NCBI GenBank assembly: GCA_051306295.1 | Contig: JBPPMZ010000125.1 | Location: forward strand, 453 to 64,452 | Origin: Candidatus Limnocylindrales bacterium | GTDB taxonomy: Bacteria; Chloroflexota; Limnocylindria; Limnocylindrales; CSP1-4 | Direction of reading: 5' to 3' | DNA length: 64,000 nt | In this document: positions 35,040 to 54,512 of the stretch, in pieces | Position numbering within the stretch: the stretch's first letter is position 1 | Layout: every line of letters starts with the position of its first letter | Position numbers and translations under genes: made by a program | The notes under the pieces: generated by a model | What the model saw: only the letters and a program-made list of their open reading frames with translations | Told to the model about the DNA's origin: nothing | The model's database searches: none

Positions 35040-36353
35040 TCTTGAGTCGCGACATATGAGTCACATGAGTCGGGACATCCGAGTCACATGTGATCATCCG
35101 GTCGCTTGGGACCCCGGCCATCGGCCGGGGTCTCGTCGTGTGTTGCGCCAGTAGCCCTTGTCGGGCTCGATACGGTGGGTCGAGAGGACCTCGCCGGTGT
35201 CGAGGGCGACGACCGTAACCTCGACCTCGTCGACGATGGCGAGGACCCGCCGGCGGGCATGGGCGGCGCCGATCTTGAGGTGGTACAGCCGGCCGGCCCG
35301 GCGCAGGGTCATGGCGCCTCGGCTGTCGGTGACGTCGTAGCGGAGCCGGAAGTGACCCGAGGCAGCGCGGCCGACGGGCTGCGCCCGAGGGGTCGCCCGG
35401 TACGCCTCGCCCGGGGTGATCCGCCCGGTCGCCCGGTGCGGTCGCTGTTCGTCGTAGGCGGTCCGGAAGGCATCGAGCTGGACCTGCAGCTCGGGCAGCG
35501 TGGCGGCGGCCGGCTGCCGCCGGAGCCAGCGCTTCAAGGTCTGGTGGAAGCGCTCGATCTTGCCCTGGGTCTGGGGGTGGCCGGGAGCCCCGTTCTTCTG
35601 CCGGATGCCGAGGTAGGCGAGCAGGTACTCGAACCCGTTGCGGCCGCCGGTGAAGCGCGCCGTGTAGACGGCGCCGTTGTCGGTGAGCGTGGCGGCCGGC
35701 CAGCCGTGCTCGTCGCCCGCAGCGGTGAACGTGGCCACGACGTCGTCGCCCGACACCCGCCCGAAGGCCGCGCACGAGAGCAGGTAGCGCGAATGGTCGT
35801 CGAGCCAGCTCAGGATCTCGACCTCGCTCCCGTCGGCCAGGCGCCAGTGGGTGAAGTCCGACTGCCAGCACTCGTTGGGCGCCGCGGCCTCGAACCGGTG
35901 CCACGAGCTGCGCGGGCGCTTGCGCGGCTCGGGGACGACGAGGCCGGCGGCGTACAGCACCCGCCGGATGGTCGAGCTCGACGGGACCGGGTGGCCCTCG
36001 CGGCCGAGGTGCCAGGCGATCGTGACCGGGCCGGCGTCGAGACCCCGGGCGGTGAGCTCGGTGCGCAGGGCGACGATCCGCGCCCGGATCGCGTCCGGCG
36101 TCCGGCCCGGGTTGGTCAGCGGTCGGCGGGAGCGAGGCTCCAGCGCGTCCAGCCCACCGTCGCGATAGCGGCGGACCAGACGCGTGAGCTGTTGCCGGCT
36201 GATCCTGTACTCGGCCGCGGCGGCGGTGACGGACAGCTGCTTGGAGACGACCTTGAGGACGGCCACCCGATGCTTCGACATGGGCCCGACTGTCACGCAT
36301 GTCGCGACTCATCTGACTCGCATCACCTGACGCCTATGTCCTGAACTCGGACA
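35038..36353 (-). mobile_element. IS481-family insertion sequence
   Basis: Imperfect terminal inverted repeats TGTCTTGAGTCGCGACATA (left) and TGTCCGAGTTCAGGACATA (right, reverse complement). Subterminal GAGTC...ACAT repeats at both ends, a single DDE transposase ORF, and a flanking 16-17-bp direct repeat. Confidence 0.85.
35094..36296 (-). CDS. IS481-family DDE transposase (rve integrase core)
   Basis: N-terminal HTH (LSVTAAAAEYRISRQQLTRLVRRY). Catalytic blocks WQSDFTHW, LTDNGAVY and HPQTQGKIERFHQTLK. Confidence 0.9.
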   Translation of the reverse strand: MTVGPMSKHRVAVLKVVSKQLSVTAAAAEYRISRQQLTRLVRRYRDGGLDALEPRSRRPLTNPGRTPDAIRARIVALRTELTARGLDAGPVTIAWHLGREGHPVPSSSTIRRVLYAAGLVVPEPRKRPRSSWHRFEAAAPNECWQSDFTHWRLADGSEVEILSWLDDHSRYLLSCAAFGRVSGDDVVATFTAAGDEHGWPAATLTDNGAVYTARFTGGRNGFEYLLAYLGIRQKNGAPGHPQTQGKIERFHQTLKRWLRRQPAAATLPELQVQLDAFRTAYDEQRPHRATGRITPGEAYRATPRAQPVGRAASGHFRLRYDVTDSRGAMTLRRAGRLYHLKIGAAHARRRVLAIVDEVEVTVVALDTGEVLSTHRIEPDKGYWRNTRRDPGRWPGSQATG

Positions 36354-36370
36354 CTGTCGGGCGCGCCATT
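36354..36370 (+). repeat. att-like repeat copy 2 (CTGTCGGGCGCGCCATT)
   Basis: 17/17 identical to 35022-35038. Immediately follows the IS481 right end. Confidence 0.85.
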
Positions 36371-36443
36371 ACAACCTTTTCGGGCAGCGCCAGCGCCAAT
36401 CCGTGTGCGTAGGCCGCCGCGGTCAGGCGAAAGGGCTTAGAAC

Positions 36444-37046
36444 GTGCCGAAGATCTTTGTCGAACTGACGATGTCGTTGGACGGGTACGTCGCAGGTACC
36501 GACGTGAGCCTTGAGGATCCGCTGGGTAAGGGCGGTGACCGACTGTTCGAATGGTTCGAGGGCGGCGATTCCGGTCAGCCGTCGGCCGTTGACCGGGAGA
36601 TCGCGGCAAAGAAGCTCACCGGCACCGGAGCGATCGCGATGGGCCGGCGCATGTTCGACGTCGGCGAGAAGCCCTGGGGCGATAACAGCGCCTTTGGAAG
36701 ACCGTGCTTCGTCGTCACCAACCGGCCTCGCGAGGCGCTCGTGAAAGGCCCGACCACGTTTACGTTTGTCGATGGCGAATTCGCCGATGCGCTCGCACAG
36801 GCCCAAGCCGCCGCAGGAGAAGGTGACGTCTGTGTCATCGGCGGTGCCAACATCGCGTAGCAGGCCATGGCTGCAGGGGTCGTTGACGAGCTCCGCCTCC
36901 ACGTGGCGCCGGTGCTGCTGGGCGCCGGAACCAAACTGTTCGCCGATGCAGACCACCGCATCGAGCTGCTGCCGGTTCGAGTGATCGACACCCCAATGGC
37001 TGCGCACTTGACCTATCGTGTTCTTGAAGTAGCCAAGCGGAGCTGA
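36444..37046 (+). pseudogene. RibD_C-type dihydrofolate reductase-family gene interrupted by an in-frame TAG
   Basis: VPKIFVELTMSLDGYV...VIGGANIA-TAG(36858-36860)-QAMAAGVVDELRLHVAPVLLGAGTKLF. Family similarity continues in the same frame across the stop, to TGA 37044-37046. Confidence 0.7.
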
Positions 37047-37299
37047 GGTCCTGCCCTTACATCATCCCTGGCTTGTTCCCGAATGCGAACAGCCTCTCGA
37101 CCTCGTCGCTGATCACCCGTGCCGCCGTTGGCACTCGCCAGCGTTGGGTGTACTGCGTCAACCAGTAGGAACTCCGCCACGGAACCAGAGGACCAGCGAC
37201 TGATCGTCGTGTCCAGCCGAGGCTGAGCACCTCCCACGTGCATGCGGAGCGATCATCGGGTCGCGAGGAGCCCGACCGCTCCCGGGGTATCGTGTCGCC

Positions 37300-40122
37300 A
37301 TGCCCCCTGTCGATCTCGCGGCGTCGTCCTCTCCCGACATCGTCGGCCGGTCGATGGAACTTCAGGCGGTCGAGGATCTTCTTGCGGCGGCGACATCGGG
37401 CACTCAGGGAGCGGTCGGGCTGCTCATCGAAGGCGACGCGGGCGTCGGCAAGTCGATGCTCTGGCGAGCTGCGGTGAGGCTGGCCAACGAGCGCTTGATG
37501 GATGTCGTGCTGTGTGCACCGGCGGCGGTCGAGCAGGCGCTCTCGTTCGTCGCACTGCGCGACCTGATGGGCGGACTGCCGAGTGAGGAGTTGGATCGGC
37601 TGCCTCCACCGCAACGCAAGGCGCTCGGAGCGGCCCTGCTTCGGTTCGACGCCGACGCGGCGGTGGACCAGGGCGCGCTGGGCGTCGCACTCACGGCCGT
37701 CATCCGGCGCCGAACTGACGATCGACCGACCCTCCTGGCCATCGACGACACCCAGTGGCTGGATCCGCCGTCGGCTCGTAGCCTCGCCTTCGTCCTGCGC
37801 CGCCTGGCCGATGCCCGCCTCGGAGTGCTCATGACGCGACGTTCCGGTGAGGAAGCCCCGCTCTTCGAAGCGGCCGATCAGACGCTCGAGGCGCGATCGC
37901 AGCGGATCCGTCTCGGCCCTATCAGTTTCGGGGCGCTGCATCGTCTCCTCACATCACGGACCGGCCACCGATTCGCGCGCCCCGTCGTGGCGCGGATCGA
38001 ACGCGCCTCAGGTGGCAACCCGATGACGGCGCTCGAGATAGCGCGAGCGCTCCTCGAGTCCGGCGCCGGCGAGCTGGGTCCCGGCCAGGACCTGCCTGTC
38101 CCCGATCGGTTGCGCGACCTGCTGGACGCCCGGCTTGCGCGACTTAGCTCCCAGGGCCGGGCGGCGGTGCTCCTTGCGGCCGCATTGTCGCATCCGACTA
38201 CCGCGCTGATCGCCGCGGCCTCGCACGACCAGGCGGCGGCAGGCGATGGGCTTGCGGAAGCCGAGTCGGCGGGCATCGTCGCGATCGACGAGGGCCGGGT
38301 GCGATTCAGTCACCCACTGTTCGCATCGGTCGTCCAGGCCACCGCAACCACCGCGACTCGGCGTGCCGTGCATCGGCGCCTCGGGATGGTCGTGGCCGGC
38401 GAGGAGGAGCGCGCCTACCACCTCGCACTGGCCGCGACCGATCCGGACGCGGACCTTGCGGATCAGCTCGAAGTCGCAGGTCTCCAGACGTATCACCGGG
38501 GAGCACCTGATGTCGGGGCCGGGTTGCTCGCTCGGGCCGGGGCCCTGACTCCGACCACTGACCTCGTTGCACGAGGACGCAGGGCCGTCCTGGAGGCGGA
38601 GGCCCGAATGGAGGCCGGTGACCTCGCGGGCTCTGGGGACGTGCTCGAACGGGCGCGCGCCTGGATCCCGCCCGGGCGCCAACGTGCCGACGCGCTCCTG
38701 CTCCTCGGCACGGTCCACTGGTACCTCCACCTGGAACAGGCGATCGCGACGCTGGAGGAGGCACTGGCGGACGCCGCAGATGACGCGACGCTCCGCGGCC
38801 GTATCCATAGCCGGATGGCTCTGTTCGAAACTGATGTCGAGGCCAGTCGGGCGCACGGTCGGGCGGCCGTAGCGCTCATCGACCCCGCGATCGATCCGTC
38901 TGGACGCGCCTTCGCTCTGTTCGGGCTCTTCTTCGCTGACCTGCAAGCCGGGTCGCCCCCGGATCTGCAGGCGTTCGAGTCGGCGCTTGCGATCGAGCCC
39001 GATATCCCCTCCTGGGAAGCAAGCACGGTTCCCGCGCTCTGGTGGATGTACATCGACCAGCACGACCGCGCACGAGCGCGGCTCGAGAGGCACCTCAAGT
39101 GGGCGCGCGACTCGGGCGACGAATCGTCCGACGCCGACCTCTACGTCCACGTCGCGGAGCTCGAGCTCTATGCCGGCAACTGGTCGGCGGCGGACGCGGC
39201 GGCCGACCGCAGCGTCGACGCTGCCGAACAGATGGGTCAGGTCGCGCCTGACCCATCGCACCGGGTCCGTGCCCTCGTGGATGCGCACCTCGGCCGACTG
39301 GACCGAGCGATCGCCGAGGCGGCGGCGGGGGCCGCAGGCTGCCGCGATGTGGACCCGGAGCTGGAGGCGATGTACCTGGACGTGCTGGGCACGGCCCAGC
39401 TGGCCGGGGGTGAGTCTGCATCCGCGGCGGAGGCGTTCGACCGGATGGCGCTCATTCTCGAGGCCCGCGGCGTACGCGAACCGCTCCGCCACCGCACCGA
39501 GCCCGATCACATCGAGGCCCTCGTCGGGATCGGCGCGGCAGATCGCGCGGCGGCGCTGCTCGGCCGACTGGAACGGCGACACGAGATCGTGCCCCGCCCA
39601 TGGATCGCGGACGGGCTGCCACGTTCACGGGCGCTGGTTCGACTGGCTCGCGGAGACTCCGTTGGGGCAGCTGCCGAGCTCGCCGAGACTCTTGAGTCCG
39701 CCACGGCGTCGGATGCCGACGCATTCGCCTTGGGCCGATCCCTTCTTGTTCTCGGCCGCCTCGAACGACAGTTGGGCCATCGTCGGAGCGCCGGGGAAAG
39801 ACTCGACCGGGCCGTGGCCCTGTTCGACTCACTGCCGGCCCCGGCCTGGTCCGCCCAGGCGCGGCAGGAGAGCGACCGGCTCGGGCGCCGGCGCGGGGCT
39901 GGCGACGAGCTCACATCCGCTGAAGCGCGGGTCGTCGAGCTCATCGCCGGCGGCCTGACGAACCGGGCGGTCGCGGACCGGCTAGTCCTGAGTCCCAAGA
40001 CAGTCGAGGCGCACCTGGCCCGCGCGTACGCCAAGCTTGGCGTCCGATCAAGAGCGGAACTCGGGCGGCGCCTGGCAACTGGCAACGCCACCTCCGTGGA
40101 GTCAGACGACCCCGCGTTGTAG
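37300..40122 (+). CDS. LAL-type regulator (large ATP-binding LuxR family: AAA ATPase + TPR-like + C-terminal LuxR HTH)
   Basis: Walker A GDAGVGKS. Long helical-repeat middle. C-terminus LTSAEARVVELIAGGLTNRAVADRLVLSPKTVEAHLARAYAKLGV. Confidence 0.9.
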   Translation: MPPVDLAASSSPDIVGRSMELQAVEDLLAAATSGTQGAVGLLIEGDAGVGKSMLWRAAVRLANERLMDVVLCAPAAVEQALSFVALRDLMGGLPSEELDRLPPPQRKALGAALLRFDADAAVDQGALGVALTAVIRRRTDDRPTLLAIDDTQWLDPPSARSLAFVLRRLADARLGVLMTRRSGEEAPLFEAADQTLEARSQRIRLGPISFGALHRLLTSRTGHRFARPVVARIERASGGNPMTALEIARALLESGAGELGPGQDLPVPDRLRDLLDARLARLSSQGRAAVLLAAALSHPTTALIAAASHDQAAAGDGLAEAESAGIVAIDEGRVRFSHPLFASVVQATATTATRRAVHRRLGMVVAGEEERAYHLALAATDPDADLADQLEVAGLQTYHRGAPDVGAGLLARAGALTPTTDLVARGRRAVLEAEARMEAGDLAGSGDVLERARAWIPPGRQRADALLLLGTVHWYLHLEQAIATLEEALADAADDATLRGRIHSRMALFETDVEASRAHGRAAVALIDPAIDPSGRAFALFGLFFADLQAGSPPDLQAFESALAIEPDIPSWEASTVPALWWMYIDQHDRARARLERHLKWARDSGDESSDADLYVHVAELELYAGNWSAADAAADRSVDAAEQMGQVAPDPSHRVRALVDAHLGRLDRAIAEAAAGAAGCRDVDPELEAMYLDVLGTAQLAGGESASAAEAFDRMALILEARGVREPLRHRTEPDHIEALVGIGAADRAAALLGRLERRHEIVPRPWIADGLPRSRALVRLARGDSVGAAAELAETLESATASDADAFALGRSLLVLGRLERQLGHRRSAGERLDRAVALFDSLPAPAWSAQARQESDRLGRRRGAGDELTSAEARVVELIAGGLTNRAVADRLVLSPKTVEAHLARAYAKLGVRSRAELGRRLATGNATSVESDDPAL

Positions 40123-40140
40123 GGAATCACCGGATGCTGT
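40117..40140 (+). promoter_or_regulatory. Conserved island motif copy A: TTGTAGGGAATCACCGGATGCTGT
   Basis: The 12/12 identical core TTGTAGGGAATC plus a similar extension recurs at 45337-45360. Lies 29 nt upstream of ATG 40169 and overlaps the LAL stop codon. Confidence 0.45.
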
Positions 40141-40168
40141 CCGGACGCGCGGCCCACATCGTGTCGAG

Positions 40169-40504
40169 ATGACACCTGACCGCTTACCGGCTCCGCGCAC
40201 GTCGTTCCGGACCTTCCTCGCCGAGCGCTACCGCGCGGGCACCTCCCAGGCGATCGCTCGCCGCGAATCCGAAGCCGCACGAGTCGCGACCGTGGAGCTG
40301 TCAAAGGAGGGTCGTTTGGTGACGCTCATCGGATCCCTCCTCGTTCCGAGCGACGAGACGGTCTTCTCGCTGTTCGTGTCGGCGTCACCCGACGACGTCG
40401 CCGCCGTGGGCGAGCGGACCGATCAGCCATACGACCGGATCTCGGAGGGGGTCCCTGTCACGCCATCACGGGCTCGCACCGTCAAAAGACGGGCACCCCG
40501 ATGA
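40169..40504 (+). CDS. DUF4242-like small protein (111 aa)
   Basis: The pattern ...FLAERYRAG...AARVATVELSKEGRLVTLIGSLLVPSDETVFSLFVSASPDDVAAVGERTDQPYDRISEGV resembles the actinobacterial DUF4242 family from memory. Confidence 0.5.
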   Translation: MTPDRLPAPRTSFRTFLAERYRAGTSQAIARRESEAARVATVELSKEGRLVTLIGSLLVPSDETVFSLFVSASPDDVAAVGERTDQPYDRISEGVPVTPSRARTVKRRAPR

Positions 40505-43500
40505 CCGACTCCCAGCCCTCGTTCCACGCACGACCGGTCCGGTCGCTGATCGCGGGGCTCTTGACTGCTGCGATCGTCGCGGCGTGTTCGAGCACGCCAC
40601 CGACGGCCAGCCCTGGAGCCTCGGCTGCCCCGTTCGGATCGGCCGACGTCACGGCGGCAGTCCAGACGCTGGCATCGGCCGGCGTCGCGGTCCGTGTCAG
40701 GCCCGCGGATGCGCCGCTCCTGACGCCGACCGGCCAGAGCCGGGTCGCATTGCTTCGATTCCAGGTTCGCAACCTGGCCCTGGATGCGCGCGGCGGCGGT
40801 CTGCGCGGCTCCGAACTGGACGAGGTGGCGGTGGCAAACGGCGGACTGCCGGCCTCGTATCTCATCGCAGCCTGGGCGGAGGGCGCCGGCACGCTGGCCG
40901 CCGCCGCGGGCTCGAAGCTCCTCGGTGAGATGACGTCGACCGACCCGCCGGCGATGCGCTTTCCCGGCCTCGCCGTTGCGTTGTTCCTCGCGGACACGCT
41001 GCCGGATCCGGCCACTGCGACGGGAACCCCCAAGTTGGCGGCGGTCGGTCAGGTCGCCGCGGCGCCGATCGGTTTCTGTGATGAGGTCGGCGCCTACTTG
41101 AGCGGGGTCCTCGAAGGCATGCTCGACCCGACCCAGGCCCTTGCTCCCGCCTGGCTCGAGGGCGCCATCGACCGATACGCTCTGTTGGAGAGCGACCCCG
41201 TCAAGCTGCGCAACGCCGTCGCCGCGACCGCCATGCTCGTCTACGCGACGAGCATCTCCCGCCCATGGGTCGTCGAGATGGTCACTAGCCCGGGCGCGGT
41301 CCACTACCTCGTCGGTGACGAGGGCCAGCTCACCGGGGTGCCGCCCAACTCGGTCCGGATCGGAGTCGATGCAGGCGACGGGACCTTCGCCGACGAGGTC
41401 AACGGCTGCGCAGAGCTAGCCAGCGCCCAGCTTGCGGAGACTGACGTGGACGGCAGCCCGGTGACCTGGATCATGCCCCGCCTCGAGGGCCACGCCGAAG
41501 AGATCCCGATCGACGATATCGACGACGAGCTCGACGAGAATGGTGCCGCCGGCGTCGAATACACGACCCTGGATGAAACCACGAAGATGCACGACGAGGG
41601 CACCGAAGAGCGGGAGTTGGTGGTCGTCTGGGCCTTCATCGAGCGGCAGGACGTGACCTCGCTGAAGGCCCTCGTCGAACAGCTCATCGGCGGCACCGGG
41701 ATCCTCGCCCCCAACAGCCGGGCCGTCTACGACCGAGTCAAGCCTCAGCTCGACTCGCTGCTTGTCCCCCGTGCCTGGGAACAGGTCGATGTCTCATGGC
41801 ACGAGGCGCTCGAGCCGAGCCCGAGCCCCTCGCCGCCGCAGCCGTGCGCCGCGGGTTGCGCCGGCAGCAACGGCGATCCGCATCTGCGCACGGTCAACGG
41901 CGTCAGGTACGACTTCCAGGCCGCGGGCGAGTTCACGCTCCTCCGTTCACAGGATGGCTTGACCGAGATCCAGGCACGGCAGGAGCCCGTCTCGGTCGGT
42001 CGGGGTGTTGCCATGAACACCGCCATCGTCGTGCGCTCGGGAGACCACCGGATCGGCGTCTACGCGACAAAGGCCGGCACGACGGTCCGGCTCGACGGTC
42101 AGCCGGTCGACGCCTCGGGACCGACCGACCTGGGTGGGGGCCTGCGTCTCTCGATCCGACGATCGGGTGTCGAGGTCGGCCTTCCCGACGGGACCGTGAT
42201 CTACGCGATGGCTTTCGGCCGGATCAACCTCCAGATCGCTCCATCCGACGCGATGCGCCGCGCCGCCGTGGGGATCCTCGGGCCTGTGCCCGACGGCGCA
42301 AGTCTGCCCGCTCTGCCCGACGGCACCGTCCTGCCGGTCGACGGCGATCGGGTGCCGTTCCTGTACGGCCCGTTCGCCGACGGATGGCAGGTGACCGACA
42401 GCACGAGCCTGTTCGACTATGAGCAGGGGACGTCGAGCGCGACCTTCGCCAAACCTGAGTTCCCGTCTCCTGACGACATCGTGACCATCGATCGGCTGGA
42501 CCCGGGCGTCCGAGTGGCCGGCGAGACGGCGTGCTCCACGGTCGCCGACCCGGGGTTGCACGAGGAATGCGTCTTCGACGTCGCGATCACCGGCGACCTC
42601 GGCTACGTTGCTGGCTACGACCTGACGGATCAGTTCTTTCGCACCGGAACGGAAGCCTTTGGCCAGCCGGACGACCCGGTCGGTCCGCAACCGGCCGCCT
42701 CAGCGACGCCACTGCCGGTGGGCCCCCTATCGGAGGGCATCGTCGAGGTCCTGCCGAGCGTCGCCAGGTTGCTTGGCTCGGCCATGGGGCCGGACGGGAC
42801 GCTCTATCTCTCCGTGCAGCTGGCCCAGGGCACCTTCGAGGTGGTCGCGGCCGACCCGAAGACCGGGCGGATCACGGCCCGCGTGGAGGCACAGGGCGGG
42901 GGACAGGTCGCGCTGACCGCGGGCGCCGTGTGGGTGGGTGAGTTCGCCGGCGGACCCGCGTGCTCGGTCACCCGCCTCCAGCCAGCGACGCTCGTCGTCG
43001 AGGCGACGATCGCGACCGCGTGCACGACTTTTTACACGGAGCTCGCGGCGACGGCAAACGCGCTGTGGTACCAGGACACTGCCGGGCTCCGGGCGGGTGA
43101 TCCTGGCGCCAAGGTGCGCTGGATCGATCCTGCGACGAACAAGGTCTCGGGCTCCGTCGACCTGCCGTCGACCGTGGTCCCGGATCGGGCGACTGATCTG
43201 CGGGCGACCGACACAGCGGTGTTCTTCGGCTTCGACTCGGACGCTGGATACAGCGAGCTACGCCTCCGTGTCGGACAGGATCGATTCACTTCGGTCCGCA
43301 CGCCCGGCTCTCGAACACTGGTCGCTGGCGATGGCATCTGGGTGCAGGAGGTAGCGGCAGCCTCGTTCTACTCCACCGGCGGAGTGGCCGATCGCACTAT
43401 CCAGATCGAGGGCTCACTCGTCGCCGCCGATGAGCGGGCGCTCTATGTGCAGCGCTTCGGCGCCCAGGGGTCTGTGCAGGAGCTCTGGCGCCACCCGCTC

Positions 43501-43692
43501 GATGGGCAGTCGCCCACACGCCTCGCCAGCGGCGCAACGATCGGCTCGGCGTGGGGTGACCGGAGGCTCGACTACTTCGACGGCGGACCGATCCTCAGTG
43601 CCCCGTCGGCGCTCGTGAAGCTCTGGCTCGTCTACGCCAGCGAGGACACCAGCGAGAGCCGCGTGCTCGCGCAGTGGACCCGCCGTGAGTGA
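40501..43692 (+). CDS. Giant lipoprotein (1063 aa) with central von Willebrand factor type-D (VWD) domain and repeat-rich C-terminus
   Basis: ATGA overlap with the upstream gene. Lipobox VAAC. GDPHLRTVNGVRYDFQAAGEFTLL...GILGPVPDG...FADGWQVTDSTSLFDY...ACSTVADPGLHEECVFDVAITGD matches the VWD pattern. Confidence 0.8.
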   Translation: MTDSQPSFHARPVRSLIAGLLTAAIVAACSSTPPTASPGASAAPFGSADVTAAVQTLASAGVAVRVRPADAPLLTPTGQSRVALLRFQVRNLALDARGGGLRGSELDEVAVANGGLPASYLIAAWAEGAGTLAAAAGSKLLGEMTSTDPPAMRFPGLAVALFLADTLPDPATATGTPKLAAVGQVAAAPIGFCDEVGAYLSGVLEGMLDPTQALAPAWLEGAIDRYALLESDPVKLRNAVAATAMLVYATSISRPWVVEMVTSPGAVHYLVGDEGQLTGVPPNSVRIGVDAGDGTFADEVNGCAELASAQLAETDVDGSPVTWIMPRLEGHAEEIPIDDIDDELDENGAAGVEYTTLDETTKMHDEGTEERELVVVWAFIERQDVTSLKALVEQLIGGTGILAPNSRAVYDRVKPQLDSLLVPRAWEQVDVSWHEALEPSPSPSPPQPCAAGCAGSNGDPHLRTVNGVRYDFQAAGEFTLLRSQDGLTEIQARQEPVSVGRGVAMNTAIVVRSGDHRIGVYATKAGTTVRLDGQPVDASGPTDLGGGLRLSIRRSGVEVGLPDGTVIYAMAFGRINLQIAPSDAMRRAAVGILGPVPDGASLPALPDGTVLPVDGDRVPFLYGPFADGWQVTDSTSLFDYEQGTSSATFAKPEFPSPDDIVTIDRLDPGVRVAGETACSTVADPGLHEECVFDVAITGDLGYVAGYDLTDQFFRTGTEAFGQPDDPVGPQPAASATPLPVGPLSEGIVEVLPSVARLLGSAMGPDGTLYLSVQLAQGTFEVVAADPKTGRITARVEAQGGGQVALTAGAVWVGEFAGGPACSVTRLQPATLVVEATIATACTTFYTELAATANALWYQDTAGLRAGDPGAKVRWIDPATNKVSGSVDLPSTVVPDRATDLRATDTAVFFGFDSDAGYSELRLRVGQDRFTSVRTPGSRTLVAGDGIWVQEVAAASFYSTGGVADRTIQIEGSLVAADERALYVQRFGAQGSVQELWRHPLDGQSPTRLASGATIGSAWGDRRLDYFDGGPILSAPSALVKLWLVYASEDTSESRVLAQWTRRE

Positions 43693-43743
43693 GCCCATGG
43701 CTCATTGGACTGTTATCGGGATCCATCCGAAGGAGATAGCCTC

Positions 43744-45285
43744 GTGAGAACGTTCGTTGCCGTCGTGCTCGTCGTGCTGATGACTGCTGCGTGCGGCGGG
43801 TCGTCGCCGCTGGCCCCGAGCCCGCCACCTGGTGGGTCGGCGACGACCGGATCAACCTCGACCGTCACGCCCGGCGGAGCGACGTTTGCGGTCACATCTG
43901 GCGCGGCGTCGCCCGGCATCGCAGACGTCACATCGGCGTACGGCCTACCGCCCACCACCGACGGGTCGATCACCTATCAGCCTGACGTGGTCATCGTGGA
44001 CGGCGGCGCACGGGCCGTCCGGTCGGTGAGCTCCGATGGCATCAAGTGGACGATCGATGCCAACGCGGGACACGCGTCGGAACTCCAGCTCGACCGGATC
44101 ATGTTCCTGACGAGCCGCGCCGTCGGCCGCGTTCTCGCGATCGTGAGGGAAGGCGACGAGCTGACCGTGACATTGGGTCCGGTCGACCTGACGGACGTCA
44201 TCACGGAGGGTCGTATTGAGGTCAGCGCGGAGATCCCGCTCGACTCGCTGACGGGGCTTGCGGTGCCCGGTGAGCCCACCGCACTGGACTACGCCGAGAC
44301 GCCGACCCAAGGCCGCGTGGACGGCAGCGCGACACTCGCCCTGGCGCGCATCGCGGATCCGACGACCGTTGATGGGCCGCGTAACGACGTCGGCGAGCCC
44401 ACGCTACCGCCGACGACGACCGGCAGCACCTCGGAGATGAGCCTCGGGCCATTCAATGTCGAACTCTCCCGCTCGTCTGCCGACGGAGGGAGGCTCGGCC
44501 TCAAGGCGGGCTACCAGAAGAATGGCGTGACGATCGGTGTTGACTTCGGCGCTGTCCTCCAGAACCCGGTCTACGACGTTGCCCTGGACATCGCCGCCGG
44601 CCGGATCAGCAGCGCGCGGATGCGCATCGATGGGCTCGAGCAACTGACCGTCAAGCTCGACGGCAGCAGCACGACGGGCCTGGCAGGCAACTTCAAGGCG
44701 CGCGCGGAGGTCCCGTTCGAATTCAACATCCCGATCGCCGCGCCGATCCCCATCAATCTGAGCATCCGCCAGAAGTTCATCGTGGAGACCGCCTTCAGTG
44801 CCAAGAACAGCACGATCAGTGCAACCGGCGTCTTCGCGGTCGATGGACCGATCGGGTTCGATTACAAGGGTGGCTCCCTGACCCTGCTCACGCCGAAGGT
44901 CACCGAAACGCAGCCGCTCATCGATTCCCTCAGTGGGATCTCGGTCGGGGTCAACGGGATCGTCGTCGCCTACCAGCTGAAGGTGCTGGGCGGCATCGGC
45001 GTCCCGTTGTTCACGGCTGGACCGTTCGCGGCGATGACGGTATCGACGGGTCTGACCGTCGGTTCGGATCTCGGCATCGTGAAATGCCGGATCGCGTCGC
45101 TCGATGTCGTCGCCGCAGGTGGCCTGGGGTACACGATCTCATCGAGCGGCAAGGGGCTCATCGAGAAGTTCTTCCGGAAGCTCGGCGTGAGCGAGGCCAA
45201 ACTCGACTCGGAGTATTCGAGCGTGACCCAGACGCTTGTGCACGCGGTCCGCTCGGCCCCCGACGTGCCGGTCTGCAAGGGATGA
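43744..45285 (+). CDS. Lipoprotein of unknown family (513 aa)
   Basis: RBS AAGGAGA (43731-43737) and GTG 43744. Signal peptide ending LMTAACGG. Beta-strand-rich Gly/Ser/Thr/Val composition; no family recognised. Confidence 0.7.
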   Translation: MRTFVAVVLVVLMTAACGGSSPLAPSPPPGGSATTGSTSTVTPGGATFAVTSGAASPGIADVTSAYGLPPTTDGSITYQPDVVIVDGGARAVRSVSSDGIKWTIDANAGHASELQLDRIMFLTSRAVGRVLAIVREGDELTVTLGPVDLTDVITEGRIEVSAEIPLDSLTGLAVPGEPTALDYAETPTQGRVDGSATLALARIADPTTVDGPRNDVGEPTLPPTTTGSTSEMSLGPFNVELSRSSADGGRLGLKAGYQKNGVTIGVDFGAVLQNPVYDVALDIAAGRISSARMRIDGLEQLTVKLDGSSTTGLAGNFKARAEVPFEFNIPIAAPIPINLSIRQKFIVETAFSAKNSTISATGVFAVDGPIGFDYKGGSLTLLTPKVTETQPLIDSLSGISVGVNGIVVAYQLKVLGGIGVPLFTAGPFAAMTVSTGLTVGSDLGIVKCRIASLDVVAAGGLGYTISSSGKGLIEKFFRKLGVSEAKLDSEYSSVTQTLVHAVRSAPDVPVCKG

Positions 45286-45336
45286 GCTGCCACAACGTGT
45301 GACGGGACAGGCTGAGCGGCGGAACCGGCCACCAAC

Positions 45337-45360
45337 TTGTAGGGAATCGCCCGATGCCGC
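45337..45360 (+). promoter_or_regulatory. Conserved island motif copy B: TTGTAGGGAATCGCCCGATGCCGC
   Basis: Second copy of the 40117-40140 motif, 83 nt upstream of the collagen-like gene ATG 45443. Confidence 0.45.
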
Positions 45361-45442
45361 CCCGGGTGACGCGACCTAGCTTCGGTATGGCGGACGGTGA
45401 CCCGAACCTCGCGTCGCGATCCCGCCGATCGGAGGAACGCTG

Positions 45443-46198
45443 ATGTCCCGACTTCGTCCCTGGCAGCGGTTCGGACCGCGCCGTATCTTCGCTCTCGGGC
45501 TCGCTCTGACCCTTACCGTCGCGACGACCGCGGTGGTCGCCGCCGTCGTAACATCGGACCCCGGCCCGTTCACCGGATGCCTTGCGACGAAGACGACCGC
45601 GAAGGGCACCCTCTACAACGTCGCGATCGGATCCGCGCCGACCACGGCCTGCGCGAAGGGTGATGGTCAGGTCACCTTCAGCAATGCGCAAGGTCCGATC
45701 GGTCCGCAAGGTCTCCAGGGGCCGATGGGCGACCCGGGCGCGAACGGGATCGACGGCACGAACGGGATCGACGGCACGAACGGGATCGACGGCACGAACG
45801 GTGCAGCGGGGCCGGCGGGGCCGGCCGGTGGCGTGACCGATTCGTATGGTTCGTACGGTGCCGCCAACGTGCCGATCCTCTTGGGTCAGCTCAATACGAA
45901 CGTCGTCCGTTCCGAAGTCGTACCGGCCGGGAACTATGCGATCTTCGCGACCGGGATGGCCCAGAACCTGGATCGCGACGCCTTCTTCCAGTGCTTCATC
46001 CGGGCGGCGGGAACGATCGTCGCTGAGAATGACGCCCTGACCGAAGACGGTTGGCTGCACAACTCCACGATCTCGATCGTCGGTCAGGCGTCGATGCCTA
46101 GCGGGGGAACGATCGAGTTCCTCTGCCAGACCGCCTACGCGGGTGCCGAGGTGCGCCACGGCTCGCTGGTCGCGCTCAAGGTCGGCGCACTGCATTGA
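45443..46198 (+). CDS. Membrane-anchored collagen-like (G-X-Y) repeat protein with globular C-terminal domain
   Basis: RBS GGAGG. N-terminal TM (IFALGLALTLTVATTAVVAAVV). 15 uninterrupted G-X-Y triplets (nt 45692-45829). About 120-aa C-terminal domain. Confidence 0.8.
   Translation: MSRLRPWQRFGPRRIFALGLALTLTVATTAVVAAVVTSDPGPFTGCLATKTTAKGTLYNVAIGSAPTTACAKGDGQVTFSNAQGPIGPQGLQGPMGDPGANGIDGTNGIDGTNGIDGTNGAAGPAGPAGGVTDSYGSYGAANVPILLGQLNTNVVRSEVVPAGNYAIFATGMAQNLDRDAFFQCFIRAAGTIVAENDALTEDGWLHNSTISIVGQASMPSGGTIEFLCQTAYAGAEVRHGSLVALKVGALH
45742..45801 (+). repeat. Exact 18-nt tandem repeat GAACGGGATCGACGGCAC x3.3 inside the collagen-like region
   Basis: Read directly from the sequence. Encodes (N)GIDGT repeated three times. 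Confidence 0.9.
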
Positions 46199-46289
46199 CT
46201 ACCTCTTCAGGCGCTTCCACGTCCGCCTCCGCGCGTGTCGGACGCGCCAAGCGGAGACAACCTGCCAATCTACCTTCAGGAGTTCAGTC

Positions 46290-46979
46290 ATGAAGCAAGT
46301 ACTCGGACGAGTCGCGCTTGGCGCGATCATGGTTGCGATCCTTGGTTGTGGCGGGGGGGCCCCGAACCCACTGGCCTCCGGTTCCGCTGCGACCGCACCT
46401 TCGTCGACGACGGCCGGCACCTCGATGGAGGTGCCGAGTGCGCCGGCAGCGGCATCACCATCGGCGACAGCCGATGCGTCATCGCCCGCGGGCCTGCCAT
46501 CTCTGCCCGCGATCTTCTCGAGTCACGCCGATCCGGCACTCGAGGGCCAGCTTCCAGCGGAGGTATCCGGGACCACATTGCAGCACTACAGCCTCACGCT
46601 GTCCGAGGTCCTGGACGCCGGTGGCGACCGGGCATCGATCGACGCCTTCCTCCAGGGGATCGGCAAGACCGAAGCGGACGGAAGCTTTGCGGCTGCCCTC
46701 GATCCAGGCAACGCGCTCGGAGGCGGGATCTTCGCGTTCAAGGTCAAAGGCGCCGATACGGCAACGCTGCTCGCGGGCATCGTGGCCGTCGAGCAATCGG
46801 ATTTGGGCGGTGGTGCGACGACGCGGCAGGCAACCGTCGGCGGCAAGAGCGTGACCATCGTGTCGGTGGGAACGGGCGTCAACGATACGGAGTGGATCTA
46901 CGGACGCGGCGACGTCGTGTTTGTCGTGCACGCAGGCGACGAGACGCACGCGGCTGCCTTCCTCCAGGCGCTTCCGTAA
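46290..46979 (+). CDS. Lipoprotein of unknown family (229 aa)
   Basis: RBS AGGAG and ATG 46290. Signal peptide with lipobox ILGC, then an Ala/Ser/Pro-rich linker and a globular domain. Confidence 0.7.
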   Translation: MKQVLGRVALGAIMVAILGCGGGAPNPLASGSAATAPSSTTAGTSMEVPSAPAAASPSATADASSPAGLPSLPAIFSSHADPALEGQLPAEVSGTTLQHYSLTLSEVLDAGGDRASIDAFLQGIGKTEADGSFAAALDPGNALGGGIFAFKVKGADTATLLAGIVAVEQSDLGGGATTRQATVGGKSVTIVSVGTGVNDTEWIYGRGDVVFVVHAGDETHAAAFLQALP

Positions 46980-47167
46980 CAAGGCACGCCACCTCGTCCA
47001 GCCCAACTCCAATTGTTGGCTCCTTCGATCGGAATCAGCGTGATTCTCGAGTGGGTACCCGCACGCCCAACGTGGCGGGGCGGTCAACCCGGGGCGCCTC
47101 TACACGATCGTTCCATAGTGTTGGGGACGGTCTGCCCATCACTGCGGCCAGGATCCACGCCTCGGCT

Positions 47168-47818
47168 TTAGTGGAGACCGAAGAGCAGCGCCAGCCCAAT
47201 CGCGAGGGGAGGGAGGAAGAGCGTCAAGGGCGGTACGTCGCCTGCGATCACGAAACCCCCCAAGACGAGCAGAGCGAACACGCTCGTTCCGGCTCCAACA
47301 AGCGACGAGACTGGCCCATCGACCGCGAGGGCGAGGCCGACAGCGATGAGACCAGCTGCTCCGAGGACGACGAAGGCGCCATACAGGCCGCCTGCCCACC
47401 GGTCGGCGATCTCGGCCGCCGGGTCAACGATGCCCATCGCCGCGAACCGGCTGGCAACCGTCGGGACCACCGCCAGGCGATGGACGAGCGACGTGGCCCA
47501 GAGCACCGCCGCAACGCTGAAGCTGACGGCCCCGGCGGCCGCCAGCAGGGCGGTCCCCGAGTCGGCAACCTGCGCTGGCACGATGTCGAGCCCGGCGGTC
47601 GTGACGACGGTCCCCGCGAGGAGGCAGAGGTTCGCGAACCGCCAGAGGCCGGGCCGGCCGTGGATCGAGGCGAGGTACTGGTCGGGCGGCACCCGCATCA
47701 CGGTCCAGAAATACGCACCCGCGCCAACGAGGAAAAGGGCGGGCCCGACTACGAGCAGCCAGCCAGTCAGGGTGACGCCGCTCATCGCCGTCCGAGCCTC
47801 GACGGCGTCAGCACTCAT
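47168..47818 (-). CDS. Integral membrane protein of unknown family (about 6 hydrophobic segments)
   Basis: 216-aa ORF (ATG 47818, alternative ATG 47785). Continuous hydrophobic helices; no family recognised. Confidence 0.6.
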   Translation of the reverse strand: MSADAVEARTAMSGVTLTGWLLVVGPALFLVGAGAYFWTVMRVPPDQYLASIHGRPGLWRFANLCLLAGTVVTTAGLDIVPAQVADSGTALLAAAGAVSFSVAAVLWATSLVHRLAVVPTVASRFAAMGIVDPAAEIADRWAGGLYGAFVVLGAAGLIAVGLALAVDGPVSSLVGAGTSVFALLVLGGFVIAGDVPPLTLFLPPLAIGLALLFGLH

Positions 47819-47911
47819 GCATCACCCCACTGGTGCAAACCCCAAGAACTGCGGATAACTGAGAGCTCGTCGCGCCTTGACGGTTTCTCAGTTAGCCCGC
47901 AGACTGCGCCC

Positions 47912-49693
47912 GTGGCCAGCCTATTGGAGACACTCGACCTGATCCGCGACGGCGCGGTGCCCCGCGACCTCGAATCCGAGCAGCTCGAGTTCAAGCAGGA
48001 GGAGTCCGCGGACCCGCGCCGGTCGCTCGAGATGCTCGCCGACGCCGTCGTGTGCCTTGCGAACGCCGAGGGCGGGACGATCGTGGTCGGGGTGGTCGAC
48101 GCCGTCGGCGGCCCCGCGGCGTTTCGGGGCGTCTCGACCCGCCTGACCGCCGACGTGATTCGGAAGGGGATCTTCGACCGCACCCGGCCGTCGCTCTCGG
48201 TGCCGGTCGCGGAGGTCCTCGAGGGCACCGCCCGTCTGGTCGTGATCACCGTCCCGAAGGGGGCGGTCTTCTACGCCAACGCCGCGGGCACCGCGACCCG
48301 GCGCGTGGGGAGCGAGTGCCGGCCCTTCCCGCCCGAGGAGCAGCGGCAGGCGATGGCCGCCCGCGGCCTGTCGGACTGGTCGGCCGAGGCGACAGACCTC
48401 GGGATGGAGGCCGTATCCGCCGACGAGGTCGCCCGCATCCGCAGGCTGCTCCTGCTGGCCGGCCGGGAAGACCTCGCCAGGGCTGACGAGCGCAAGCTCG
48501 CCCGGGACCTGCGCCTGCTCACGTCCCACGGCAAGCTGACGCGGGCAGGACTGCTGGTCCTCGGTGACGCCGAGACGATCGCCGCGGCCATCCCCAACCA
48601 CGGGTTCTCCTACCAGTACCGGGCGAGCCCGGGCAGCGAGTCGACCGCCCGCATCCGATCCACGCGGTCCCTGCTCGCCGCCGTCGAGTCCCTCCTCGAC
48701 GCGGTCGCCGTCCGCAGCCGGGTGCACCCACTTAGCGCGTCGGGCGGCGTCCAGATCCAGATCCATGACTACCCGGCAGACGCCGTCCGCGAGCTCGTGG
48801 TCAACGCGCTCGTCCACCGCGACTACGAGCTCGCGGGCGCGGTCGACGTGGAGCACTCGCCCGACTCGCTGGCTGTCACCAGCCCGGGGGGCCTTGTCTT
48901 CGGGGTCACCCCCGAGAACATCCTCACTCACCCGTCCACGCCACGGAACCGGCTCCTGCTCGAGACGGTCACGGCGCTGCAGGTCGCGGAGCGGACGGGC
49001 CAGGGGATCGACCGCGCGTACCGGGAGCTGCTCCGCACCGGGAAGGTCCCGCCCACCTTCGGCGACGACGGATACCAGGTACGCGTCCTCGTCCAGGGCG
49101 GGACCGGCAACGACGCGTTCGCGCGGTTCGTCGCTGAGCTCGCGCCGGAGCTCGGGGGTGACGTTGACGTCCTCCTGGCACTGTCGCATCTCCGCGACGC
49201 GCGCAACATCGACGCCGCCCGGCTCGCCGCGATCGCCCAGCGGTCGACGAGCGAGGCGCAGGGCGTGCTCGAGCGGCTGGCCCTGGCGCGGCTCGTCGCG
49301 CCGACTGCCCGGACGGCAGCTCGGGCGCTCCCTACGTACGTCCTCACCGGCTCTACGCTGGCCAGCCTGGGCAGGGCGGTGCGCTATCACGTGCGCCGGG
49401 CCGATGAGACCGACCGCAAGGTCGCCGATCACATCCGCGAGTACGGCCACGTCACCAACCAGACGCTGCGGCGCATGTTCGACGTCGACGTCGCGGGGGC
49501 CAGGGATCTGCTGCGGGCACTGCAGCAGCGGGGGGTGATCGTCAAGCTGGACCAGGGCCGCGGCGGACCCGGAATCCGGTACGGCCGCGGACCGAAGATG
49601 CCGGCGGGCGAGAGCCGCCCCTCGAGGACGGCCCGCGGCGAGCCGGCCGATCAGCTGGCGCTTGACGAGCTCGAGCGGGCCTCCGACGAGTAG
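47912..49693 (+). CDS. COG2865-type protein: Schlafen/AlbA_2 divergent-AAA domain + HATPase_c_4 + C-terminal wHTH
   Basis: ESEQLEFKQE...ANAEGGTIVVGV (AlbA_2 pattern). AVRELVVNALVHRDY...TPRNRLL...ERTGQGIDR (HATPase_c_4 pattern). C-terminal wHTH (VTNQTLRRMFDVDVAGARDLLRALQQRGVI). Start at GTG 47912 or TTG 47924. Only the 3' half of the 1152-aa track ORF is coding. Confidence 0.75.
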   Translation: MASLLETLDLIRDGAVPRDLESEQLEFKQEESADPRRSLEMLADAVVCLANAEGGTIVVGVVDAVGGPAAFRGVSTRLTADVIRKGIFDRTRPSLSVPVAEVLEGTARLVVITVPKGAVFYANAAGTATRRVGSECRPFPPEEQRQAMAARGLSDWSAEATDLGMEAVSADEVARIRRLLLLAGREDLARADERKLARDLRLLTSHGKLTRAGLLVLGDAETIAAAIPNHGFSYQYRASPGSESTARIRSTRSLLAAVESLLDAVAVRSRVHPLSASGGVQIQIHDYPADAVRELVVNALVHRDYELAGAVDVEHSPDSLAVTSPGGLVFGVTPENILTHPSTPRNRLLLETVTALQVAERTGQGIDRAYRELLRTGKVPPTFGDDGYQVRVLVQGGTGNDAFARFVAELAPELGGDVDVLLALSHLRDARNIDAARLAAIAQRSTSEAQGVLERLALARLVAPTARTAARALPTYVLTGSTLASLGRAVRYHVRRADETDRKVADHIREYGHVTNQTLRRMFDVDVAGARDLLRALQQRGVIVKLDQGRGGPGIRYGRGPKMPAGESRPSRTARGEPADQLALDELERASDE

Positions 49694-50085
49694 CCCACGT
49701 CGCCACCCGCATGGGCGCCGGCCGCCCAGCCCGGGCCGCCTCGAGCTCGGTGGGTGGGATCGGCCAAGGCCTGGGCCAAGGCGCCCCTCCGGCGCCCCGT
49801 GGCGCCCGGCGGCGAAGACGCCCCGATCCATCTCCTCCTCAGGCTCCGGGAGCAGCGGAGCCAGATCCACACGAGCTGCTTGGTCGTTGGCGCACGCATC
49901 TTGGACCGGGCGCTCGCCAGGTGGTGCCTGACGGTCGAGTTAGACAGGCCCAGGCGGTGGGCGAATACGCTGTCGCTGTGTCGCCCGCACGATCCGGTGA
50001 GGACCCGCGGAAGCGCCCCGTCAGATGCGCTCGTACACGCCAAGCACGGCGAGGATTCGCCCTTCGGCGCTGTTGCGCGCGACAT
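49651..50085 (-). pseudogene. LuxR-type HTH paralog 1, frameshifted just after the HTH relative to paralogs 2 and 3
   Basis: HRLGLSNSTVRHHLASARSKMRAPTTKQLVWI matches paralog 3. Nucleotide alignment shows ATC-TGGCTCCG here versus ATCCTGGCCCCG in paralog 3 (one nt missing); the corrected frame would read ILAPLLPEPEEE. No clean start downstream of the methyltransferase stop. Confidence 0.5.
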
Positions 50086-50851
50086 TCGCGCCCATCTGCG
50101 GACCGCTCGGTCCGTTCAGGAGGCCGGGGTTGAGCGCTGGATGCGAGGACCCTTTGCCGGTCTGCGAGTCCGGGCGATCGAGCTCCGCCTCAAGGTCGTC
50201 GCCGACCATCCATGCGATCTCGCGGAAGCCGGACTGGGCGATCAGGGCGCGGGTCTCGTCGGGCGCCAGGAGGAAGTTGAAGGACGCGTCGGACGCCCAC
50301 GGAACCGGGAAGTGAATCGGCTGGTTGGGCCCTGCGAGGACGTCGAAGAACGCCAGCCGGCCGCCGACTCGGACGACCCGGGCCATCTCCCGGTAGAGGC
50401 CTGCCTTGTCGTCGATGTTCATCGATGCGTGCTGCGTCCACGCGACGTCGAAGCTGCCATCAGGAAAGGGCATGGCGAGCGCGTTCCCGCAGACGAACGA
50501 GACCTTGTCCGCGAGGTTCGTCCAGGCAGTCAGCGTCTCACCCACGGCGCAGTACTCTGCGGTCAGGTCCAGGACCGTAACGCGGCAGCCAGTCCGATGC
50601 GCGAGCTGGCGGGCCGGGCCGCCGATGCCACCCCCGACGTCGAGCACGCTGTCTTCGGCGCTGATCGCGGCCGCGCGCGCCAACGCCAGGGTGCCGGCCA
50701 GTCGGTGCCAATGGTAGTTGTCGACCGGTGCCAGTTCATCGACCGTGACTCGCGTCGGATCGATCCCGTTCCGGCGGATCTCCGCCTCGATGGTCTCCAT
50801 CAGCCCGGACCATCCGTAGTGGCGGCTGACCCGCTCGTCGATCTCGTTCAT
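50021..50851 (-). CDS. Class I SAM-dependent methyltransferase
   Basis: ATG 50851 with RBS AGGAGG. Motif I VLDVGGGIGGPARQLA. Methyltransf_11-like core. Confidence 0.8.
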   Translation of the reverse strand: MNEIDERVSRHYGWSGLMETIEAEIRRNGIDPTRVTVDELAPVDNYHWHRLAGTLALARAAAISAEDSVLDVGGGIGGPARQLAHRTGCRVTVLDLTAEYCAVGETLTAWTNLADKVSFVCGNALAMPFPDGSFDVAWTQHASMNIDDKAGLYREMARVVRVGGRLAFFDVLAGPNQPIHFPVPWASDASFNFLLAPDETRALIAQSGFREIAWMVGDDLEAELDRPDSQTGKGSSHPALNPGLLNGPSGPQMGANVARNSAEGRILAVLGVYERI

Positions 50852-54502: not shown

Positions 54503-54512
54503 TACTCCGCCC

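Follow-up and report, generated by a model that had tools for sequence, protein, structure and literature searches.

A candidate LAL-type regulon with two promoters, a conserved promoter box and varying exported cargo in a Limnocylindrales bacterium

LAL regulators are known chiefly as switches of antibiotic clusters and of the maltose regulon. MalT is the prototype of the family, and MalT boxes are repeated, unlike the single palindrome described below. Here we analyze a locus in a 64,000-nucleotide (nt) stretch of DNA from a Candidatus Limnocylindrales (Chloroflexota) metagenome-assembled genome (contig JBPPMZ010000125.1, ~70% G+C), hereafter the window, in which a LAL-type regulator gene and five further genes lie on the plus strand between positions 37300 and 46979. 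This locus is most likely a two-promoter regulon run by the adjacent LAL (MalT-type STAND) activator, and we put the probability of this reading at about 0.6. The regulator (37300..40122, plus strand; 940 amino acids, aa) shares with MalT-type LAL regulators its size (theirs is about 900-1000 aa), an AAA_16 domain (PF13191, E = 1.4e-16, residues 15-173) with readable Walker A (GDAGVGKS) and Walker B (LLAIDD) motifs and a C-terminal GerE helix-turn-helix (HTH) of the LuxR type (PF00196, E = 2.2e-13, residues 870-921), the domains being from Pfam searches, and its gene adjoins its presumed targets. Its middle region may be TPR-like (TPR_12 at 28.9 bits, just short of the 30.1-bit cut-off). It differs from MalT-type regulators in its presumed targets, which are exported lipoproteins and not genes of sugar catabolism or antibiotics; in its presumed operator, one palindrome located at the stop codon of the regulator gene itself; and in a first target that is always a small DUF4242-like gene. 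SCO0877 and SCO7173 are known LAL-type regulators for comparison (PMC3282765).

The presumed targets also have described counterparts. The small protein is closest to SCO4226, a nickel-binding protein (PMC4186839) that is barely characterised in the paper library we searched. The largest lipoprotein carries a VWD domain, as do FCGBP, MUC2 and MUC5AC, and self-cleavage of VWD domains at a GDPH motif has been documented (PMC10880436, PMC8267560). The DUF3558 lipoproteins, whose relatives occur in related operons, are enriched in the SigM/ESX-4 regulon of M. abscessus (PMC13491425); they are barely characterised in the same library, where the only substantive paper treats their function as open, and DUF8403 and DUF8402, the probable families of a second lipoprotein, receive no mention there.

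The sequence-only reading of this DNA had placed six genes here, and a check of the open reading frames (ORFs) recovers all six, on the plus strand, at the same positions. Because high-GC DNA is full of spurious ORFs, GC content by codon position was checked as well: it is 0.76-0.84 at third positions (GC3) and 0.52-0.61 at second positions (GC2) in the six ORFs, as expected of real coding genes. The GC3 of the flanking genes is mostly ~0.9, and that of the six module genes is lower. That reading had taken the six genes for a single module; this is partly supported, and a better description is a LAL regulon whose operator is conserved and whose small partner gene is fixed, with exported cargo that can be exchanged.

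The promoter box, the regulator and the small gene

The motif TTGTAGGGAATCnCCnGATGC is found exactly twice in the 64-kb window, at 40117 and 45337, where 0.01 occurrences are expected by chance, which bears out the earlier observation that two transcription units have a common upstream motif. The first copy belongs to promoter 1 (40119..40162, plus strand), with the box GTAGGGAATCACCGGATGC at 40119-40137 and a -10-like hexamer CATCGT at 40157-40162, and the second to promoter 2 (45339..45382, plus strand), with the box GTAGGGAATCGCCCGATGC at 45339-45357 and a -10-like hexamer TAGCTT at 45377-45382. The consensus of the box is (G/A)TAGGGAA(A/T)CnCCnGAT(T/G)C, and its window form is GTAGGGAA(T/A)CnCCnGAT(G/T)C. 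It is an imperfect palindrome, GGGAAnC-N4-GnTTCC (perfect in L074; L-numbers denote comparison loci or contigs, and P-numbers homologous proteins), lying 20 nt upstream of the -10-like hexamer, and would overlap the -35 region, as expected of a site for a dimeric HTH activator. Positions 39-44 from the box start nearly always read TAnnnT (usually TAGCGT), with an ATG or GTG 4-8 nt further, and this short spacing between hexamer and start codon suggests leaderless mRNA at the box promoters. At promoter 1 the ATG of the small gene comes 6 nt past CATCGT, and the layout and spacing are the same as at more than 40 sites in other loci. The TAG stop codon of the LAL gene falls within the box of promoter 1; in many loci, the window included, the LAL stop codon is a TAG inside the box.

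To place the box beyond the window, we used 80 genomic loci chosen solely for a gene of the 513-aa lipoprotein family. These loci contain 52 box sites at up to two mismatches (<=2), compared with ~7 in shuffled sequence, and in 38 of the loci a box on the strand of the 513-aa homologue precedes it by <=2.2 kb. A full-length LAL homologue, typically 35-42% identical, is present in 17 of the 80 loci (15 upstream of the 513-aa homologue and on the same strand), and the box is found in 14 of these 17 loci vs 24 of the 63 loci without a full-length LAL gene (P = 0.002, Fisher's exact test). Metagenome contigs were scanned for the exact box so as to escape the bias of anchoring on the 513-aa family. 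The scan found at least 84 exact box sites in a collection where many exact 19-mers are expected by chance, and 36 of the 84 have a -10 hexamer at the right distance vs ~8% expected. A gene of the small family starts 42-53 nt past the box at no fewer than 18 metagenome sites (>=18; E = 1e-8 to 1e-17). Among the matches listed, the LAL gene ends at the box (TAG inside) or diverges from it in 30 of 80 metagenome loci, and the cargo past the boxes varies: mostly secreted proteins or lipoproteins without family, together with a PD40 propeller, a DUF11 protein, an ABC transporter, a dehydrogenase and one relative of the N-terminal domain (N-domain) of the window's VWD protein.

From this arrangement we infer that the box is the LAL operator. 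The LAL protein, loaded with ATP and a ligand, would bind it via the GerE HTH, at an imperfect palindrome of the form TAGGGAAnC-N4-GnT(T/G)C overlapping -35 and 20 nt before a TAnnnT-type -10. It would switch on unit 1, consisting of the small gene, the VWD lipoprotein gene and the 513-aa lipoprotein gene, which are tightly linked by an ATGA overlap and then a 51-nt gap, and likewise unit 2, consisting of the genes for the collagen-like protein and the 229-aa lipoprotein. Several points weigh against this assignment. It is by co-localisation that the LAL protein is linked to the box, and 24 genomic loci carry a box with no LAL gene within 10 kb, which leaves room for another binder. The window boxes end in GATGC, where the actinomycete norm is GATTC, and the -10 hexamer of promoter 1 (CATCGT) is weak. 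A consensus scan found neither terminators nor canonical sigma-70 promoters that would delimit the units. The closest comparison contigs are metagenomic, and two of them, L001 and L090, represent one population (DNA 98.4% identical). Finally, family and structure searches assign no biochemical activity to the cargo, and Foldseek finds nothing at E <= 0.001 in PDB and BFVD for the model of the 513-aa lipoprotein.

The small gene (40169..40504, plus strand; 111 aa) starts at ATG 40169, and its stop codon overlaps the start of the VWD gene by ATGA at 40501-40504, so that the translational coupling of the two genes noted from the sequence is verified. Its product has no signal peptide and is a cytoplasmic SCO4226/DUF4242-like protein with a predicted ferredoxin-like fold. 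Searched alone against the SCO4226-like Pfam family PF14026, it scores 15.2 bits (E = 0.025), below the 28.5-bit cut-off, and a neighbour of P0004 has merely a weak precomputed PF14026 match. With a profile of eight members of the small family, the top PDB match is the SCO4226 structure 4oi3 (E = 0.001, 22.3 bits), over its C-terminal half only. The ~90-aa proteins of 513-aa-family loci align end to end with the window protein, and the family has the common motifs F..ERY, PxDExV..L.E and DRI, with invariant F, E, Y, D, V and R. The window protein is thus like SCO4226 in being small (~80-110 aa) and cytoplasmic and, at a marginal level, in the profile match to 4oi3, and unlike it in falling below the Pfam threshold singly, in having no conserved histidine and in always coming first after the LAL box. 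This unvarying place as first target would make it the likeliest partner or feedback modulator of the LAL protein, and it is expected to remain in the cytoplasm.

Tandem promoters of box plus -10 hexamer, ~700 bp apart, are seen in L029 (3058 and 3756) and L037 (7753 and 8500). Each is followed by an ORF starting with MTRR or VTRR, which at the second L037 box was confirmed to belong to the small family; the small gene seems to have been duplicated along with its promoter. In the window, a near-perfect palindrome CGGAATCAGCGTGATTC lies at 47030-47046, 50 nt past the stop codon of the 229-aa gene. It has the LAL-box half-sites GGAATC/GATTC, but with a 5-nt spacer and no -10 hexamer, and could be a terminator-side operator or a chance match.

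Exported products of the two units

The four large products were read from the sequence as extracytoplasmic, and this holds on re-examination of their N-termini, with three predicted lipoproteins and one N-terminally anchored collagen-like protein. By inspection, the lipoboxes are IVAAC29 in the 1063-aa protein, MTAAC17 in the 513-aa protein and AILGC20 in the 229-aa protein, and each closes the most hydrophobic 19-residue stretch of its protein. All three lipoproteins would be acylated, with the lipid anchoring them at the outer side of the cytoplasmic membrane. None of the four exported proteins matches a well-known enzyme or solute-binding family, in agreement with the earlier remark that no enzyme is recognisable among them. 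Their function would be, at most, inducible binding or remodelling at the cell envelope.

The VWD lipoprotein (40501..43692, plus strand; 1063 aa, Cys29) is laid out as an N-domain (residues ~41-440), a VWD domain, a helical C8-like segment and a beta-propeller (~745-1063). The VWD domain and the propeller-like C-terminus had both been proposed earlier, and both are corroborated: Pfam places VWD (PF00094) at residues 457-594 with 24.6 bits vs a cut-off of 22.9, and in Foldseek searches the AlphaFold2 (AF2) model (mean pLDDT 72.5) matches the D assemblies of VWF, mucins and FCGBP at E = 3.5e-9 to 1e-6 (VWF D1-A1, 3.5e-9; FCGBP D10, 3.4e-7) as well as BamB/WD40-type propellers. The protein is also 100% identical to an NCBI entry annotated 'VWD domain-containing protein'. 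A GDPH motif at residues 458-461 is kept in 35 of 36 aligned homologues. By analogy with FCGBP and mucins, the protein probably self-cleaves at Asp459-Pro460, which would leave a tethered N-domain holding a VWD/C8/propeller fragment. It therefore resembles FCGBP, MUC2 and MUC5AC in its Pfam VWD domain, GDPH motif, conserved cysteines and D-assembly matches. It differs from them as a bacterial lipoprotein with VWD set between an uncharacterised N-domain and a beta-propeller, without TIL/E modules or mucin repeats, and its cleavage is predicted only.

The N-domain (residues 41-440) has no family in the Pfam copy scanned and no PDB relative, and profile searches of PDB with the VWD family and with the N-domain family gave nothing useful. 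An exhaustive HMMER search found 251 relatives of the N-domain, mostly proteins of 550-680 aa, several of which end in a DUF3558-like domain (P0330 at 3e-10, P0311 at 3e-9, and others, scored against a model built from the neighbouring DUF3558-like lipoproteins). Since DUF3558-like domains are fused to the N-domain in these relatives and DUF3558-like lipoproteins stand next to 513-aa homologues in actinomycetes, these fusions are indirect evidence that such extracytoplasmic parts may work together. VWD homologues of ~40% identity are ~1170 aa long, and carry an HExxH motif (HEVxHCYQ...EGxAxY) in their N-terminal domain that is absent from the window clade. The idea that the window N-domain is a degenerate protease was dropped after hhalign showed no homology between it and the HExxH N-domain. 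As no homology is seen between the two N-domain types, the VWD family is modular: the N-domain varies, and the VWD, C8-like and propeller parts come after it. The paralogues with HExxH, VWD and propeller (~1170-1190 aa; 10001-13576 in L003 and L004, 10001-13516 in L005) are single genes in conserved housekeeping neighbourhoods of Chloroflexota metagenome-assembled genomes, within 10 kb of ftsZ, ftsA and murB in L003/L004, and appear to be an uncharacterised family of envelope metalloproteases.

The 513-aa lipoprotein (43744..45285, plus strand; Cys17) starts with GTG, with GGAG 9 nt upstream. It had been described as having no recognisable family, and it has no match in our Pfam copy, which was scanned without the models PF28445 and PF28444. 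However, all 105 of its homologues carry precomputed PF28445 (DUF8403) and 104 of them also PF28444 (DUF8402), the one with PF28445 only being P0225; the matches include P0121, 92% identical to the window protein, and the L001 orthologue. The protein is thus, by way of its homologues, a probable member of the DUF8403/DUF8402 family, and the earlier statement stands in so far as the function of this family is unassigned. The homologues come from Chloroflexota, many Actinomycetota (Micromonospora, Streptomyces, Plantactinospora), Acidobacteriota and Gemmatimonadota, and tblastn against plasmids found no match to the protein. Its AF2 model is confident (pLDDT 75.5, pTM 0.72) and has two beta-rich domains, of which the N-terminal one is small and the C-terminal one is built of long strands in pairs. 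The top Foldseek matches are generic long-strand beta proteins with TM-scores <=0.2 normalised to either chain, and the family profile has no match among PDB sequences. We considered a membrane beta-barrel and rejected it, the predicted strands being charged on both faces. The invariant residues of the family are mostly Gly and Pro, with two Cys, a pattern that points to a structural or binding role more than to an enzymatic one.

Unit 2 begins with the collagen-like protein (45443..46198, plus strand; 251 aa). Its hydrophobic anchor (residues 18-36) is preceded by RRIFAL, and its 16 G-X-Y triplets (residues 84-131, DNA 45692-45835) score 30.5 bits with PF01391 against a cut-off of 27.2; an N-terminally anchored collagen-like protein, as first read, is thereby confirmed. 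Its orphan C-terminal domain of ~120 aa has a single homologue among 5.8 billion protein clusters, no similarity to any PDB chain and no PHROG match outside the repeat. In NCBIfam the protein reaches 23-29 bits for SclA/SclB, where the cut-offs are 325-400, and has weak repeat-level matches to Lcl. It is comparable to BclA, Scl1/Scl2 and Lcl in having a G-X-Y segment followed by a C-terminal domain and in being predicted to be surface-exposed, and would form a short trimeric stalk with a globular head. It differs from them in having only 16 triplets and an N-terminal hydrophobic anchor instead of an LPXTG signal (none was found in the protein) or an exosporium-targeting sequence, and its C-terminal domain, with its one homologue, has no detectable sequence similarity to BclA/C1q. 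The RRIFAL within its N-terminus (MSRLRPWQRFGPRRIFALG, 45443-45550) resembles a twin-arginine (Tat) motif, and if it is one, the protein would be exported after folding. From the expected transcription start of promoter 2, an 18-codon ORF MADGDPNLASRSRRSEER runs through 45387-45443, and its TGA overlaps the collagen ATG (TGATG); because its ATG is missing from the homologous L001 leader, this ORF may be incidental.

The 229-aa lipoprotein (46290..46979, plus strand; Cys20) has no family in Pfam or NCBIfam and is 68% identical in L001/L090. As a possible DUF3558-like lipoprotein it was rejected, hhalign having aligned the lipobox only. The DNA of the window and that of L001 align in three blocks, at 81% in the 513-aa gene, 93% in a 29-bp block containing the box and 74% in the 229-aa gene. 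The last two blocks are 77 bp apart in L001 and ~925 bp apart in the window, where the collagen-like gene lies between them, and promoter 2 is homologous to the L001 promoter that directly drives the gene of the 229-aa protein. By this alignment, the collagen-like gene would be an insertion behind promoter 2, or would have been lost in L001. The strain-specific gene thus sits between the second box and the gene driven directly in the closest relative. An inverted repeat GCGCGT-GTCGG-ACGCGC without a T-run lies at 46231-46247, between the collagen-like and 229-aa genes and within the inserted segment.

Conservation of the locus and alternative explanations

Three other Limnocylindrales-like lineages (L001/L090, L007 and L089) show synteny of the LAL, small, VWD and 513-aa genes. 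L001, with a VWD protein 77% identical to that of the window, has the LAL, small, VWD, 512-aa and 226-aa genes and no collagen gene. L007 (VWD 63%) has the small gene, the VWD gene and the start of a 513-aa homologue, with no LAL gene detected on its short contig. L089 has a LAL gene, a box, a frameshifted VWD gene and a 507-aa homologue, after which, and not before the VWD gene, its small-protein homologue is found; it has no second unit, and the 229-aa gene is kept in L001/L090 only. Co-conservation, which the earlier reading had named as its check, is seen in these lineages for the first four genes, in one lineage for the 229-aa gene and in none for the collagen gene.

Outside these lineages, the typical actinomycete operon consists of a LAL gene, the box, a small gene, one or two DUF3558-like lipoprotein genes and the DUF8403/8402 gene. 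Among the 80 genomic loci, a ~90-aa protein is encoded between the LAL gene and the lipoproteins in 10, and clustering of neighbouring ORFs shows a DUF3558-like lipoprotein of ~190 aa directly adjoining the 513-aa homologue in 35. The actinomycete proteins match DUF3558 at up to E = 1.1e-6 (29.2 bits), just under the 34.1-bit cut-off. These ~180-190-aa lipoproteins hold the position of the VWD protein in the operon; the window differs in having no DUF3558-like gene, the link being an indirect one through the domain fusion to N-domain relatives. In 14 of the 80 loci, all actinomycete (L023, L027, L028, L035 and 10 others), a SARP/BTAD-TPR regulator of ~745 aa instead of a LAL regulator stands directly upstream of the DUF8403/8402 gene, and no promoter-like box was found upstream of that gene in the four that were cross-checked (L023, L027, L028 and L035), which suggests that the regulator has been swapped.

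By these comparisons, LAL gene, box and small gene make up the unit that is widely conserved across phyla, often with DUF8403/8402 and DUF3558-like proteins after it, and the exported cargo changes. One LAL subfamily is thus accompanied in two phyla by a box under sharp conservation and by a small partner gene that stays the same, with exported cargo that varies. This places DUF8403/8402 proteins, DUF3558-like lipoproteins, the VWD N-domain and DUF4242-like proteins in a common, testable regulatory context, and genetic dissection is possible, as culturable Micromonospora and Streptomyces carry the cassette. It is possible, though on balance doubtful, that this unit is a regulatory cassette, widespread among soil and freshwater Actinomycetota and Chloroflexota and so far undescribed, into which interchangeable exported cargo is plugged by lineage: novel-fold DUF8403/8402 proteins, DUF3558-like lipoproteins, VWD-propeller proteins and, in the window, a collagen-like fibre captured recently. 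If so, one conserved signal would remodel the cell surface in lineage-specific ways.

Other explanations account for parts of these data. All six genes lie on one strand, their large products are extracytoplasmic, both units have the same box and L001/L090 keep the synteny of five of the six genes, as would be expected of a dedicated six-gene cell-surface machine, that is, one adhesion or decoration complex inherited as a unit. However, the collagen gene appears to have been inserted in this genome alone, L089 lacks the 229-aa gene, and the cargo behind the same box differs between loci. Moreover, none of the 80 genomic loci has a VWD, collagen C-terminal domain or 229-aa homologue within 10 kb of the 513-aa-family gene, and the distant VWD homologues are solitary, in housekeeping neighbourhoods without partner genes. 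We regard such a machine as quite unlikely, and the fixed six-gene system that had been suggested for this DNA is not upheld. Given that MalT is the family prototype, the locus might rather be a substrate-inducible capture system, in which the LAL protein would sense a breakdown product of an extracellular polymer and induce surface binders (propeller, VWD, collagen stalk) that retain this polymer for uptake. Box cargo elsewhere does include an ABC transporter with binding protein (L162), a PD40 propeller and, by inspection only, a TIM-barrel-like glycosidase-sized protein (L132). The window module, however, has no transporter or hydrolase and no carbohydrate-binding or catalytic family in Pfam and NCBIfam, and it lacks the HExxH of the distant VWD homologues, so that capture for uptake seems unlikely here.

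A metal-responsive envelope module, in which the small protein would bind nickel or another metal and adjust the surface lipoproteins together with the LAL protein, would draw on the nickel-binding SCO4226 (PMC4186839) as the best solved relative of the small family and on a multicopper oxidase gene at 33494-34861. Yet SCO4226 is matched only marginally (E = 0.001), no histidine is among the residues that are invariant in the small family, and between the oxidase gene and the module lie a transposase and a 194-aa ORF, with no synteny of the oxidase gene in the relatives; this explanation is very unlikely. The least credible is a contact-dependent toxin or a relic of phage tail-fibre genes. Weaker matches do show VWD beside RHS repeats and Peptidase_M91 domains, the collagen-like protein matches phage tail-fibre PHROGs and transposases flank the wider region, but the PHROG matches span the G-X-Y repeat only. 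Pfam and NCBIfam find no RHS repeats or C-terminal toxin domain in the 1063-aa protein, which ends in a beta-propeller and, as a lipoprotein, is unlike the secreted RHS-type proteins. The module was found to be free of toxin domains, immunity genes and phage genes, there is no plasmid match, and PADLOC gives no defence effector, its only matches being two CARF models on the LAL HTH region (E = 1.6e-9 and 0.0018). A LAL regulon with exchangeable cargo remains the reading that we prefer.

Surroundings of the locus

Upstream of the module lie two cyclophilin genes, the multicopper oxidase gene and an rve-type transposase gene. The last (35094-36296, minus strand), ~1 kb upstream of the LAL gene, encodes rve, rve_3 and HTH_32 domains, and the 194-aa ORF between it and the LAL gene (36423-37007, minus strand) has no family and is a doubtful gene. 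Downstream lie genes for a minus-strand polytopic membrane protein, a methyltransferase, a BBE-type oxidase, MarR, MFS and a DDE transposase. The L001 genes past the module, from a thioesterase onward, match the window at 61.4-64 kb, which places the module at a shared chromosomal site. The window has ~14 kb extra at 47000-61400, marked by transposases and absent from L001 at 9400-10000, which carries a methyltransferase, a BBE oxidase, an ABM monooxygenase, MarR, MFS and a cytidylate-kinase-like gene. The module had been called the cargo of an island, a label that better suits this extra segment than the module itself.

Two long ORFs in this part of the window were rejected. The 649-aa minus-strand ORF at 47921-49870 is a shadow of a plus-strand AlbA_2/Schlafen and HATPase_c_4 gene (47912-49693, 593 aa when called from 47912), and the 1152-aa plus-strand ORF from 46235 is a high-GC artefact. 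No Rfam family was found in 36000-48000 at E <= 1. Further downstream (59074-60479), an aldo/keto reductase fragment, with a match confined to profile positions 109-289, has its 5' side in overlap with a DDE_Tnp_ISAZ013 transposase (59074-60051), and it looks as if the insertion of the transposase truncated the reductase.

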